A stretch of 57,499 nucleotides of DNA from Escherichia coli (GTDB taxonomy: Bacteria; Pseudomonadota; Gammaproteobacteria; Enterobacterales; Enterobacteriaceae). Position 1 is the first letter of the stretch. Each line of letters starts with the position of its first letter. Made by a program: the position numbers. Below, piece after piece: positions 50,501-56,500 of this stretch. The stretch lies in the NCBI RefSeq assembly GCF_003334315.1, contig NZ_QOWR01000027.1, one strand, 5' to 3'.

Positions 50501-53500
50501 CAGATTACCAAAACGGAGGGTAAAGACAAAAACAAAAGCACAAAAAATTTAAATAGATAAACAGCGACAATATATAAATGATAAATAAGTCGGCATTATC
50601 ATTTTTCACCTTATTTTCATGACATTGATCACTTTGAGGTGACGATTTTGTTTAACAAATAACTCTTCGACATCAAAATTGTTAATAGTTGCGATGAGGA
50701 TTATTTCGGTGACATATAAAAACAACCGTGATAACACCAGGGTTGACAACTATTTGCGCAATAATGCCTTTCCTTCAATGATCCAGGCGTTCACTGCCAG
50801 CAACCCATTCAGCCGCATACTGACAGTGAGAAACTGAAAGATTATTGCTGATCCCTGTGGTTGACGAGTCTTTCTCTTAATCGATTAACCAGATTGATCG
50901 CCAGCCAAACAAGGGCATTAAGCAAATTTATCGTCACAAGCACTTCTCCCAGCCCGGTACTGGGTTTTGCAATAAGGATGACCAGGAGGGTGATCAGCAT
51001 AAATGCAATGGAAAATATGATATAGAGAGTGAAATAATCCAGATTATTACTATTGTTCATGCTACTAATGGCAATCCTGTCAAAACTTTCAAACAATTAT
51101 AGCAAACAAAATAATGAACAATAGTAACAAGAGGCAACGAGCTAATTAGCTGTCTATAATTACACCGCACTATGGCCTTACTGATCAATTTTCACTCAAC
51201 CACAACCTTCACCTTCGGTTTAGAAAGGATAATTTTGACCAGGTCGATGTATGTAACAGGTTTATAGAAATAATAACCCTGCTGAAATGTGATATTATTT
51301 TGGTTCAGATAGTCAAGTTGTTCTTTCGTTTCGACACCTTCAGCGACGATACTGATCGAAAGTTTACGCGCCAGATCCAATACACAATCCAGAATTCGGG
51401 TTGATTCTGGGTCTGCGTTTACGCGGCCAACGAAACTGTGATCAATTTTGATATAATCAATATGCAGGTCATGAAGATAAGAAAGCCCTGAGTAGCCAGT
51501 ACCGAAATCATCCAGTGCGATGACAAAACCATTTTCATGCAGTATGTTCAACCGCTGAACCAGACTTTCATCAACATTCAATGGCTCACGCTCGGTGACT
51601 TCCAGAACAAGGTTTAAATCGCGGCGGGTAAAACTGTCACGGAAATTTAAACACTCGTCGACAAACGTCGGCGAAATAATATGCGAAGCGCTAAAATTAA
51701 TTCCAATATGAAAACCTTCCGGCAATTTACTCGCGATAGCGTTCATCTGTCTGGCAACCTGATTCATCAGGCTTTGCGTAAGCGGAACGATTAATCCGGA
51801 TTTTTCAGCAAGTGGAATAAATGCCGCGGGTGATATATATCCACCGTGAGGTTGTTTCCAGCGGGCTAACACCTCAACTCCCCGCAATGTCCCTTCCCGA
51901 CCATTTACCACAGGTTGGTAAAAAGGGACGATCTCCCCATTATTTATTGCCCGTCGCAGGATCTCTTCAGGCGTTGCGCTTTTATTGAAATATCTATCAA
52001 GCAGGAAGGCAGCGGCGCAGGCGATTAACAGAATAAATATTAAAATCCCAAAGCCTTTATCGATAAGTCTGTAGAAGCTAAAGAGTGGCGGCGGGTTAAA
52101 GATAATAGTGAAATGATATTTTGTGGAGTGAACCTTCTCGGTATAGGGATAATGTCCATTAAGCGTCATCACATCACCCGTTGGTCCAATAATGTCATCC
52201 GCCACGCGTAATACATACCTTACCCCTTTCAAGGGTACATTAAGTGCCCCACGAATATGCTGATCGCTTATCGTAACCAAAATGCGCGTATCTGCAAATT
52301 GGTTCTGATAGAGCAGGATAGGTAATCTATTAACGGTGTCGATTGCTGGAGCCAACAGTAAATTACTGTCCGGGAAAACAGGAATACGAGACAACAGGAC
52401 CCGATTCCCAGGCAGGGATGTACACCAGACTATTCCCTGTTTGAGAATGATGATTGTGCGCAGGTGAGGTTTCAGAGCTGCTTCAGTGCCAAGCTGATAT
52501 TGCTCCTCGAGGTTGCATTCCTTCCCGGCAATGTTAACCGCTGTTTGAGTCGCTTGTGACGCTTCTTCAAGTATATGATTGATATTGTTGGCGGCATATC
52601 TCGCTCCCGCCAGGTACTCTGCTTTTGCGGAATACCAGAGCTGGATGTTCAAAATAGCGACACCGGTAATAAACAAGCATATCGCAACGAGGATGGGTAT
52701 GAGTGTATTGCGCATTTGCTTGTCCCGGCCAAAGGGTTTAATACATGAAAATGCCATTCATTCGCTCGCGCTGGCATCTACAGAGAGCATGGTAGAGAGC
52801 ATAAGAAATATCCACGCCGAAGATAAAATTTTCTCCATCTTGATCTAACCCATTAATTATTGAGCATAATGTAGGCAGTACAAAATAAGTTAGGCGGGAT
52901 ATCAGGCGTCAAGAATGGAGAGCGAGAACTCTCCATTCTTGACACCTGATATTGCGGACATAATAAGAAAGCATAACGCCTGAAATGCTCACTTTGCATC
53001 AGCATGGTGATACAGCTGATGTTTATTCTAAAACCTTACTCAAGTTCTAAGAGAGCACGGATTCCCTGTCATTAATAATGATATCCGTTAGTGTAGTCTT
53101 ATGCATTTCAATGTACTGCAATATTTGCAGATAGAGATCAGAAAGAATCACACTGGTTTCATCTTTTAAACGCAAGCGTAAAGCCTGATCAATAATATGA
53201 CTATCAACATACCCATGCGTCATGAACACCTCCCTCTCGAGATTTTTAAACAAAGCACATTGAAAAATAAATCTCTCTGGGATTGAATTATTCATGTCAG
53301 CCTCGTAGAAATATTAACCCAATAAAATTATGCTGTGTATAGTCTAAAGCGACAGACAAAAATAAGATGAATGAGTTTTCTATAAACTTATACTTAATAA
53401 TTAGAAGTTACATATCATCAGCTGTGTATCGCAACACGATTTCCAGTGTTTTTCTAATCACATCAGCTTTGAGAATATCACTTGTTGTTTCCAAGGAGTG

Positions 53501-56500
53501 TATCAGACTTAAGATAATATTTTTATTATTAACATTATCGCCTGAAAGCATTAAATTGGTGACAGCCTGCCCTAACACTGCTGATTCTTCTTCTAACAAA
53601 TTACCCGAACTGCGAAAGTAACTTGCTAACGCTTTATCAGTTATTGCATTATGAATTGTAGTATCTTCAAGCATGGTAACCTCTCATCTTACTTATGAAA
53701 TTTTAATGTATTCTGTTTATTTTCTTACCATTGAACATACTTTTATTGTCAGCTGTCGCTGTTCTTCGGTTTGGCCCTCCTGAATCACTATTGCTAAAAT
53801 CACGAATTATGCTGTCAATTAAATCGCGTCGGAAAGCATCTTCCTCAGCCGATTTCATTACGAGTAATTGCTTAATAAGAGTCTGCAATGAAAAATTTAT
53901 CTTCATGCGCAGTATCTGGAGCACCGCCTGGCCAGTAATTTCATATTTTATACGTTCATTATCAGATGTCTTCATAACGACTTCATAGCTAACCTGTTAA
54001 ATAATCAGGCTGTTGCATTATTCAAAAAGCAACCCAATTAGTGCATTATAATGTTTCTGTTCCTCTTCCCCAGTCGCGTGTTCCAGTCGGCAAAGAAGTT
54101 TGGCACAAAGCGACTTTCGACTCAGATTACGTCCATCTTTCAAAATCTCAGTCACAATTTCCCCGAGAGTTTCCTGCTGAGTATGCAAGTTAGCTTTTGC
54201 AAAGTAACGAGTGATTGCTCCCGCAGAATCTAAAGTCACTGAATTTTGATGCATGCTACGCCTCTGTTAAAAATGTTAATCAATGTTAAGTGAAGTAACA
54301 ATAGCAAACTTGTACGAAATATGTGTACAGAATGATAAATTAATTTTTTGCAATTAGTGCTAATGCATATAAAACAATGTGTTATGATAAAACATATTGC
54401 ATCATTTAACTGACAATCTATACAAGATTTTTCGCCAACTAGTGTTCAACTTTTTCCATTTTTTATCAATGTAAAGAAACGGTTATGTTTTGGTATTAAA
54501 AGAAAGACACAAGAAGATATGTCTGTTACCGTCTTACTCTCGCCTCACCCATTACCCTGGATTGTTAATGCTTACCACCCTTATTTATCGTAGCCATATA
54601 CGTGACGACGAACCTGTCAAAAAAATCGAAGAAATGGTTTCGATAGCAAATCGCAGGAACATGCAGTCTGACGTAACAGGGATCTTACTGTTTAATGGTT
54701 CTCATTTTTTCCAGCTTCTGGAAGGTCCGGAAGAACAGGTTAAAATGATATATCGGGCTATATGCCAGGATCCACGGCACTATAATATTGTTGAGCTGCT
54801 GTGCGATTACGCGCCTGCTCGCCGTTTTGGCAAAGCGGGAATGGAATTATTTGATTTGCGCCTGCACGAGCGAGATGACGTTTTACAGGCCGTATTCGAC
54901 AAAGGCACATCAAAATTTCAGCTAACTTATGATGACAGAGCGCTACAATTTTTTCGTACTTTTGTCCTTGCAACCGAACAATCAACCTATTTCGAGATCC
55001 CTGCCGAAGACTCCTGGCTTTTTATCGCTGACGGATCTGATAAAGAACTTGATTCCTGTGCCCTTTCACCAACTATAAACGACCACTTTGCCTTTCATCC
55101 TATTGTCGATCCCTTATCGCGGCGGATAATCGCTTTTGAAGCCATTGTGCAAAAAAATGAAGATAGCCCATCAGCCATAGCGGTTGGGCAGCGTAAAGAC
55201 GGGGAAATCTACACAGCGGATCTCAAAAGTAAGGCGCTTGCATTCACGATGGCACACGCACTTGAGCTCGGTGATAAAATGATTTCAATCAATCTATTAC
55301 CTATGACCCTGGTTAACGAACCTGACGCAGTCTCTTTTTTACTTAATGAAATAAAGGCCAATGCTCTGGTGCCTGAACAAATCATCGTTGAATTTACTGA
55401 AAGTGAAGTCATATCTCGGTTTGATGAGTTTGCCGAAGCGATTAAATCGCTAAAGGCTGCTGGTATCAGTGTAGCAATTGATCATTTTGGCGCAGGTTTT
55501 GCTGGTTTGTTACTCCTGTCACGCTTCCAGCCTGACAGAATTAAAATCAGTCAGGAATTGATTACCAATGTTCATAAAAGTGGGCCACGGCAGGCAATTA
55601 TTCAGGCGATCATAAAATGCTGTACATCACTTGAAATTCAAGTCAGTGCTATGGGCGTGGCAACACCAGAAGAGTGGATGTGGCTTGAATCCGCAGGAAT
55701 TGAGATGTTTCAGGGAGATCTGTTTGCTAAAGCTAAATTGAATGGTATCCCTTCCATAGCGTGGCCAGAGAAAAAATAATTTTCAGCACATTCTTTCACA
55801 TGATTTCAGTAAATCATCGTGAAAATGAATACGTTACGTTTAAATTTAATCCACATTAAAAATAATGTTTCATCCAATTTAGCTGAAATCTTATTTATAC
55901 TTTGTACAATTTTAGCGTATATTGTACAAAGTATTATTGGGTCGTGTACAGGCGACGGAGATTTGTGACCGCAAGGAGGAATTGTGGCTTATTACAGCAT
56001 TGGTGATGTTGCTGAACGTTGCGGGATTAATCCTGTCACTCTCCGGGCCTGGCAACGCCGCTACGGTTTGTTAAAACCACAGCGCAGTGAAGGCGGACAC
56101 CGACTCTTTGATGAAGAAGACATACAACGCATCGAAGAGATCAAGCGTTGGATAAGTAATGGCGTCCCTGTAGGCAAAGTTAAAGCATTACTGGAAACCA
56201 CCAGCCAGGATACGGAAGATGACTGGAGCCGCCTGCAAGAAGAGATGATGTCAATTCTTCGCATGGCTAATCCTGCCAAACTACGCGCGAGAATTATTTC
56301 ACTGGGTCGAGAGTACCCAGTAGATCAATTGATTAATCATGTTTACCTTCCTGTTCGCCAGCGTCTCGTGCTTGATCACAACACCTCCCGCATTATGAGC
56401 AGTATGTTTGACGGCGCATTAATTGAATACGCAGCAACCTCGCTTTTCGAAATGCGCCGTAAGCCCGGTAAAGAAGCCATTCTGATGGCGTGGAATGTTG

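Follow-up and report, generated by a model that had tools for sequence, protein, structure and literature searches.

The locus considered here lies towards the end of a 57,499-nucleotide stretch of Escherichia coli DNA (contig NZ_QOWR01000027.1, assembly GCF_003334315.1; this whole stretch is called the window below). It comprises ymgF, pdeG, ymgC, ariR, ymgA and ycgZ on one strand and the divergent bluF and bluR genes on the other (Table 1). We located the genes by listing the open reading frames (ORFs) between 49.5 and 57.5 kb and by a megablast search against 5,426 complete E. coli genomes, and took their names from the RefSeq annotations of the best collinear match (E. coli G5) and of K-12 MG1655. 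The identity to MG1655 is 99.92% over 9 kb and six of the eight proteins are the same, the exceptions being PdeG (N474 here, Y474 in MG1655) and BluR (T219 here, A219 in MG1655). The initial annotation had recognized a known blue-light module, and all of its gene names match both RefSeq annotations; the genes and order that it gave for 50842-55984 are borne out too, but bluR has its first base at 55984 and therefore falls outside the span that names it. We are highly confident that the region is the K-12-type BluF/BluR/Ymg switch for blue light, low temperature and biofilm formation, beside which stand ymgF and an unrelated, catalytically competent pdeG. This is a textbook locus that was already known, and its identification adds no new biology.

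Table 1. Features of the blue-light locus and of the distant ycgR gene, in positions of the window
Feature	Position	Strand	Description and basis
ymgF	50842-51060	-	72-aa divisome-associated inner-membrane protein; ORF; identical to MG1655; NCBIfam equivalog YmgF, 136.6 bits (cut-off 100)
pdeG (ycgG)	51192-52715	-	ORF, 507 aa
PdeG EAL domain	51258-51965	-	complete catalytic set; alignment with eight active references
RNA hairpin	52899-52952	-	25-bp stem, 4-nt loop; inverted repeat; free energy (dG) -44.5 kcal/mol, z -10.6
ymgC	53047-53295	-	ORF; identical to MG1655
ariR (ymgB)	53408-53674	-	small Rcs-connector protein; ORF; identical to MG1655
ymgA	53703-53975	-	small Rcs-connector protein; ORF; identical to MG1655
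ycgZ	54018-54254	-	first gene of BluR-repressed operon; ORF; NCBIfam YcgZ_fam, 122 bits (cut-off 80)
Published BluR operator, ycgZ promoter	54311-54329	-	TGTACA-CATATTT-CGTACA; fits the DNase I footprint motif GTACA...GTACA / TGTAC...GTACA (PMC3509220)
bluF (ycgF)	54568-55779	+	ORF, 403 aa; identical to MG1655
Inverted repeat at bluR promoter	55897-55934	.	perfect 14-nt repeat ATACTTTGTACAAT-N10-ATTGTACAAAGTAT (TGTACA-N14-TGTACA) over the bluR core promoter
bluR (ycgE)	55984-56715	+	ORF; MerR-type repressor, MlrA paralogue
Sigma-28-like box	25466-25492	+	TTAAGTTT-N11-ACCGATAA; 36 nt upstream of ycgR; 2 mismatches to consensus
ycgR	25528-26262	+	PilZ-type flagellar brake protein; ORF; NCBIfam equivalog YcgR, 441 bits (cut-off 400)

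Two proteins of this neighbourhood, BluF and PdeG, carry EAL domains, and the initial annotation took both to be degenerate. Thirteen positions of such domains bind metal, bind substrate or perform catalysis, as established by the enzymology of RocR, TBD1265, BlrP1 and YahA. We scored all of them: Q of YQP, E and R of E-x-L-x-R, N, both E of E-x-T-E, both D of DDFG, K and D of K-x-D, both E of EGVE and Q of QG. The aligned references from MG1655 were the active PdeL, PdeH, PdeK, PdeC, DosP and PdeR and the degenerate RflP and CsrD; with PA3825 and BlrP1, whose sequences were taken from Protein Data Bank (PDB) alignments, this makes eight active references in all. PA3825, PdeL, PdeC, PdeR, DosP, PdeK and BlrP1 score 13/13 and PdeH 11/13, against 6/13 for CsrD and 5/13 for RflP. 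On this scale PdeG reaches 13/13 and BluF 7/13.

In PdeG the metal-binding and catalytic residues (E281, N340, E372, E375, D402, D403, K423, E459 and E462) are the same as in all eight active references, the substrate-contact residues Q267, R285, D425 and Q479 are present, and loop 6 is intact (DFGTGYSG, compared with HFGAGFAG in BluF). The signature motif reads E281-V282-L283, which the initial annotation had considered atypical. However, the middle valine is also found in the active PA3825, PdeL and PdeK, while PdeH has a leucine and the remaining references an alanine at this position. E-V-L is an ordinary active-site variant, and PdeG should therefore not be labelled degenerate in annotations. 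In BluF, by contrast, H177 replaces the Q of YQP, Q195 the R, H306 the second D of DDFG, S328 the D of K-x-D, and M362 and A365 the first and second E of EGVE; I193 also stands in place of the motif leucine. Of the pair said to be degenerate, BluF alone keeps that description: PdeG has every catalytic residue, and its activity in vivo is documented (PMC6385356, PMC10459773). The published biochemistry of both proteins agrees with these scores. The Hengge laboratory counts PdeG among 13 active phosphodiesterases (PDEs) of E. coli and lists BluF, RflP, CsrD and CdgI as the four degenerate proteins (PMC5635695).

BluF combines a BLUF domain (Pfam, 4.5e-24; aa 2-92) with the degenerate EAL domain (7.7e-49; aa 173-388). 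The photoactive residues Y7, Q49 and M92 of the former are intact and are the same in BlrP1 and in all seven BluF orthologues. BluF aligns from end to end with BlrP1, an active light-regulated enzyme (4.4e-97), and the substitutions sit exactly at the catalytic positions. BluF neither binds nor degrades cyclic di-GMP (c-di-GMP) and antagonizes BluR; its M8 variant (I193L, Q195R, M362E, A365E, T247N, H177Q, H306D and S328D), a back-mutation, did not regain activity and was weakened in BluR antagonism (PMC3509220). Seven of these eight positions (H177, I193, Q195, H306, S328, M362 and A365) coincide with the deviations that we found independently. The degeneracy is fixed across E. coli, with the same pattern in K-12-like and in phylogroup B2 strains, including LF82. 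For a wider comparison we used six loci from other genera, of 16.7 kb each, found through a search for BluR homologues (Citrobacter, Pseudocitrobacter, a Klebsiella-like genome, Kluyvera, Lelliottia and Pectobacterium). Their six bluR-linked BluF proteins share a core of degeneracy, in which the second D of DDFG is H or N, the D of K-x-D is S or N and the first E of EGVE is V or L. E. coli BluF further lacks the Q of YQP, the motif L, the R and the second E of EGVE and is the most degenerate form, as published. BluF is thus not to be filed as an active PDE: it is degenerate, as reported, and represents an enzyme domain recycled into a protein-interaction module.

The best NCBIfam model for BluR is MlrA (268.5 bits), followed by CarH. 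Because the score is below the MlrA equivalog cut-off of 417, BluR is an MlrA paralogue and not MlrA itself; Pfam places MerR_1, MlrA_helical and MlrA_C on a 99%-identical cluster of BluR. The operator at the ycgZ promoter is conserved as TGTACA-N7-NGTACA in all seven genera (E. coli and the six others). Just past bluR, ycgX (DUF1398) begins at 56936 and is broken after about 110 nt by an insertion sequence, IS1, that runs from 57046 to the end of the window (57499). The gene is intact at this place in MG1655 and G5. In G5 and several other top matches, an IS1 is found instead at 54564-54572, directly upstream of the bluF start codon.

The switch operates as follows. Blue light would be sensed by BluF through its intact flavin-binding BLUF domain. 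With six of the thirteen key residues lost, the EAL domain neither binds nor cleaves c-di-GMP and serves as a protein-interaction surface. Light-activated BluF binds the MerR-type repressor BluR and lifts it off the TGTACA-N7-CGTACA operator of the sigma-S-dependent ycgZ promoter. YcgZ, YmgA and AriR are then produced and, via the Rcs phosphorelay, reduce the production of curli and increase that of colanic acid as well as acid resistance. BluF–BluR binding, the inactivity of BluF, the Rcs output and the activity of PdeG in vivo are taken from the literature, while the gene identities, the domain architectures, the status of the EAL residues, the selection on pdeG, its absence elsewhere and the conservation of the operator come from the present analysis.

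PdeG is a two-pass membrane CSS-domain phosphodiesterase, separate from the BluF switch, and few of the 13 c-di-GMP phosphodiesterases of E. coli are as poorly understood. Its layout, with the membrane segments placed by hydrophobicity, is a first transmembrane segment (TM1, aa 1-30), a periplasmic CSS-type domain (aa 31-217), a second segment (TM2, aa 213-244) and a cytoplasmic EAL domain (aa 251-486). Pfam recognizes the CSS-motif (3.6e-31) and EAL (PF00563; 3.2e-66, with full model coverage). Cys67, in the motif C-T-S, and Cys98 are 31 residues apart, the same spacing as C75 and C106 of PdeC. PdeG is listed as one of five E. coli CSS-type PDEs, and redox gating has been shown for two of them, PdeC and PdeB (PMC5897775). 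The periplasmic domain with Cys67 and Cys98 probably gates the cytoplasmic EAL domain, which would hydrolyse c-di-GMP; by analogy with PdeC and PdeB, this gating may be redox-dependent. It should be noted that dsbB, whose product together with DsbA oxidizes the CSS domain of PdeC-type phosphodiesterases, is found at about 37 kb of the window, about 14 kb from pdeG; this proximity is almost certainly coincidental. The closest solved relatives of the EAL domain are PA3825-EAL (1.2e-66) and YahA/PdeL (5.7e-60), both full-length matches at E ≤ 1e-59.

We found pdeG in 5,041 of the 5,426 complete E. coli genomes, and 3,934 of them have it at full length. Some members of this population carry N-terminal deletions or IS insertions, and an allele of 59% length that lacks the N-terminal sensor (ycgG2, for example in LF82) is common. 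The ratio of nonsynonymous to synonymous substitution rates (dN/dS) of the full-length gene is nevertheless 0.04-0.07 against divergent alleles (dS about 0.10-0.12), with 0.04 for the half that encodes the EAL domain and 0.05-0.10 for the sensor half. All 13 scored residues are invariant in the divergent alleles, including the truncated LF82 allele. The gene is under strong purifying selection and is not decaying. The substitution that distinguishes this PdeG from that of MG1655, Y474N, is the common allele of 'modern' strains of sequence type ST10 (PMC10459773). As for activity, full-length YcgG and truncated YcgG2 each turn the rugose Vibrio cholerae luxO(c) strain smooth, which is a PDE phenotype (PMC6385356), and expression of YcgG reduces the red, dry and rough (rdar) morphotype and CsgD (PMC10459773).

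We may wonder at this stage whether the co-location of the two EAL genes has the functional meaning that the initial annotation implied. The EAL domains of BluF and PdeG are 28% identical over 118 residues, in the C-terminal half only, and they have different nearest relatives and belong to different subfamilies; a tandem duplication is ruled out on these grounds. In all six loci from other genera, three small ycgZ/ymgA/ariR-like genes diverge from bluF-bluR, and the gene at the position corresponding to ariR gives a YmgB Pfam match. By contrast, tblastn found no homologue of PdeG, YmgC or YmgF in these six 16.7-kb loci, which reproduces the earlier report that pdeG, ymgC and ymgF are E. coli additions (PMC3509220). 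By our own arithmetic (about 17 EAL genes in 4.64 Mb), about 0.1 EAL pairs within 1.9 kb would be expected, and E. coli has a second nearby pair, pdeH and pdeK, 4.4 kb apart. The adjacency is neither statistically nor phylogenetically compelling and, on its own, not beyond chance. With two different subfamilies, and with pdeG missing beside bluF-bluR in six genera, the functional meaning given to it is not supported. In the Citrobacter, Pseudocitrobacter, Klebsiella-like and Kluyvera loci (L134-L137, about 4650-5280, minus strand), a protein of 183-186 aa encoded after the ariR-like gene occupies the place of ymgC-pdeG-ymgF; it has at most a faint GerE match, in two of the four loci.

The hairpin between ymgC and pdeG, which has no U-tract next to it, lies 94 nt past the ymgC stop codon and about 185 nt ahead of the pdeG start. 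Only K-12-like alleles have it in near-perfect form; in LF82 and STO_Bone2 it is broken by mismatches and an insertion of 4 nt. Such a structure could stabilize the 3' end of the ycgZ-ymgABC transcript or act as its weak terminator.

Several points weigh against PdeG as a plain phosphodiesterase with a redox-gated CSS sensor that simply lies beside the switch. We found no in vitro assay of the purified protein in the literature, and its activity is known from phenotypes seen in a heterologous host or on overexpression. In K-12 grown in the laboratory, PdeG is hardly expressed (PMC10459773). It has also been reported as a protein-interaction hub in two-hybrid screens (PMC5635695), and this hub status suggests that it may have additional roles beyond c-di-GMP hydrolysis. 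Finally, BLASTP detected no similarity between its periplasmic domain and that of PdeC. The CSS assignment relies on the Pfam profile and the cysteine spacing. With this lack of similarity and the motif C-T-S, redox gating of PdeG stands as an analogy.

The missing in vitro enzymology, the many two-hybrid partners and the motif EVL in place of EAL are what one would expect if BluF and PdeG were both degenerate, as the initial annotation had it, and were not enzymes but sensors or effectors whose co-location reflects a shared non-catalytic role. Yet PdeG keeps all 13 residues and an intact loop 6, compared with the 5-7/13 of known degenerate proteins, its motif recurs in three active enzymes, it shows PDE activity in vivo and its EAL domain shares just 28% identity with that of BluF over those 118 residues, so that this reading is highly improbable. 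We consider it equally hard to credit that pdeG, as part of an acquired AT-rich island, has been silenced and is decaying, functionless in this strain. The GC content is indeed 34-45% across 49-56 kb, compared with 48-52% in the flanking core genes, expression in K-12 is nearly undetectable, deletions and IS insertions circulate in the population and the adjoining ycgH is a pseudogene. However, the reading frame is intact here and at full length in 3,934 of the complete genomes, dN/dS stays at 0.04-0.07 at a dS of about 0.1 with catalytic residues invariant even in truncated alleles, and PdeG itself can be detected, with induction in stationary phase (PMC5635695).

A competent PdeG could also act chiefly as a local 'trigger' or hub that is wired to the Blu/Ymg module, by co-regulation or through the same Rcs/CsgD output. 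PdeG belongs to a five-protein 'core interaction hub' with DgcE, DgcM, DgcO and PdeR, and its induction in stationary phase parallels the sigma-S dependence of the ycgZ operon (PMC5635695). Moreover, pdeG lies directly downstream of ymgC in the same orientation, and the order ymgC-pdeG-ymgF is retained in phylogroup B2 and other lineages. On the other hand, the bluF-bluR-ycgZ-ymgA-ariR unit occurs in six other genera without pdeG, ymgC and ymgF, and the module therefore works without PdeG. In addition, ymgC and pdeG are 331 bp apart and the spacer contains a very stable hairpin, no TGTACA pair is found upstream of pdeG, about one in five E. coli genomes carries an N-terminally deleted pdeG, and the upstream spacer also ends differently in LF82, the one locus examined in this respect. 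We regard such wiring as unlikely, and favour the K-12-type switch with pdeG and ymgF as unrelated neighbours.

A side observation concerns the promoter of bluR itself. The transcription start site (TSS) of bluR was reported 54 nt upstream of the start codon (PMC3509220), which corresponds to about position 55930; consensus-like hexamers are found at 55894-55899 (TTTATA) and 55918-55923 (TATATT). Because the TSS falls there, the perfect inverted repeat spans about -33 to +4. A third TGTACA follows at 55945-55950. No second such TGTACA pair exists within the 57.5-kb window, and the arms of the repeat are identical in MG1655, G5 and LF82. Six of the seven genera have T[GA]TACA-N13/14-T[GA]TACA at this same place upstream of bluR (N13 in five of the six other genera, whereas Lelliottia has the N7 type), while the remaining spacer sequence has diverged among the genera. 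When each spacer was dinucleotide-shuffled 20,000 times, no more than 11 shuffles reached the observed box. The same box is found upstream of homologues in MlrA context in Erwinia and Pantoea, but the E. coli mlrA promoter has no TGTACA pair, and hence not every member of the clade has the box. In Pseudomonas, class II LitR regulators have TGTACA-N12-TGTACA as their operator (PMC9758184), which resembles the MlrA box (PMC3509220). The peak of SrsR in the bluR/bluF spacer, from genomic systematic evolution of ligands by exponential enrichment (gSELEX), uses a different box.

The simplest reading of this box is that BluR represses its own promoter, and the palindrome is tentatively put forward as a candidate operator for repression of bluR by BluR or by the paralogous MlrA; we think this possible, though somewhat less than an even bet. 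If it were a BluR operator, blue light would, via BluF, also derepress bluR, giving a negative feedback or reset loop. Neither BluR autoregulation nor a TGTACA box at bluR is described in the literature that we searched, Tschowri et al. (2009) being outside its reach. If true, the proposal would mean that a much-cited light-signalling circuit includes autoregulation and would extend the TGTACA operator grammar common to the MlrA/BluR/LitR clade of MerR regulators. A scan of genome contigs for TTGTACAA-N12-TTGTACAA gave, among the matches listed, unrelated and mostly AT-rich genomes from outside the Enterobacterales, the pattern being too unspecific; a single match was informative. In this gammaproteobacterial metagenome-assembled genome (L106, 6427-6883), the pair lies 43 nt upstream of a MerR-like gene with 32% identity to BluR, which diverges from ORFs of about 200 and about 315 aa. 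Judged by eye from their translations, they resemble a glutathione peroxidase and a protein of the DUF1722/YbgA type, and if these identities hold the locus would resemble a LitR-type light regulon.

The PilZ effector gene ycgR, which the initial annotation had placed about 25 kb away with a sigma28 promoter, is indeed found 24.6 kb from the start of the blue-light locus with a sigma-28-like box upstream. A loose sigma-28 pattern is not enriched in the window (four matches, 1.5 expected), and the box is a putative class III flagellar promoter by virtue of its position, not of the count. The ycgH autotransporter gene (about 47800-50442, minus strand) shares an AT-rich block (37-39% GC) with ymgF and pdeG. 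It is annotated with a frameshift or internal stop in G5 and MG1655 and is intact in STO_Bone2, and its longest ORF here encodes 506 aa (48922-50442). At the gathering thresholds of Rfam, the whole window contains the C0299 small RNA at 39348-39426 (minus strand), between umuD and hlyE, and two rdlD antitoxin RNAs of the ldr/rdl type I toxin–antitoxin repeats at 134-199 and 669-734 (minus strand), and nothing else; all are distant from the locus. When 50500-57100 was scanned by E-value, the one match was to a snoRNA, below threshold, and is noise. Counts of promoter and terminator consensus sequences over 50500-57000 are at the level of shuffled sequence and, taken alone, are uninformative.

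Compared with the E. coli K-12 blue-light pathway (Tschowri et al., 2009, 2012), the genes, their order and orientation and the operator are all the same. BluF, YcgZ, YmgA, AriR and YmgC are 100% identical and BluR is one residue apart (T219 for A219). Apart from the IS1 within ycgX just past bluR in this strain, there is no difference of substance. BlrP1 of Klebsiella pneumoniae (PDB entry 3GFX), a light-activated PDE, has the same BLUF–EAL architecture as BluF and 13/13 residues, whereas BluF, with 7/13, lacks the R, the second D of DDFG, the D of K-x-D, both E of EGVE and the Q of YQP. Unlike BlrP1, BluF acts via protein–protein interaction and not by catalysis (PMC3509220).

PdeG resembles PdeC and PdeB (Herbst et al., 2018) in the series TM1, periplasmic loop, TM2 and EAL domain; the loop is about 190 aa long and its two cysteines are 31 residues apart. 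Yet the motif is C-S-S in those proteins and C-T-S in PdeG, and control by DsbA/DsbB and DegP/DegQ has been shown for PdeC and PdeB only. With the EAL domains of PA3825 (PDB entry 4Y9O and related) and PdeL/YahA (PDB entries 4LJ3 and 4KIE), PdeG has in common E-V-L, the catalytic residues and loop 6. The N-terminus of PdeL, however, is a LuxR-type DNA-binding domain, while that of PdeG is a TM–CSS–TM sensor module, and PA3825 was crystallized as an isolated EAL domain, and its comparison with PdeG covers the EAL domain alone. Finally, the class II LitR/CarH-type MerR regulators PplR1 and PmlR2, as well as MlrA, use the same TGTACA half-site as the box at bluR, and BluR itself gives a CarH match. 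The spacer is 12 nt in LitR-type operators, compared with 13-14 nt in the boxes of the bluR type. PmlR2, like BluR, is freed from DNA by a blue-light photoreceptor that acts as an anti-repressor (PMC9758184).

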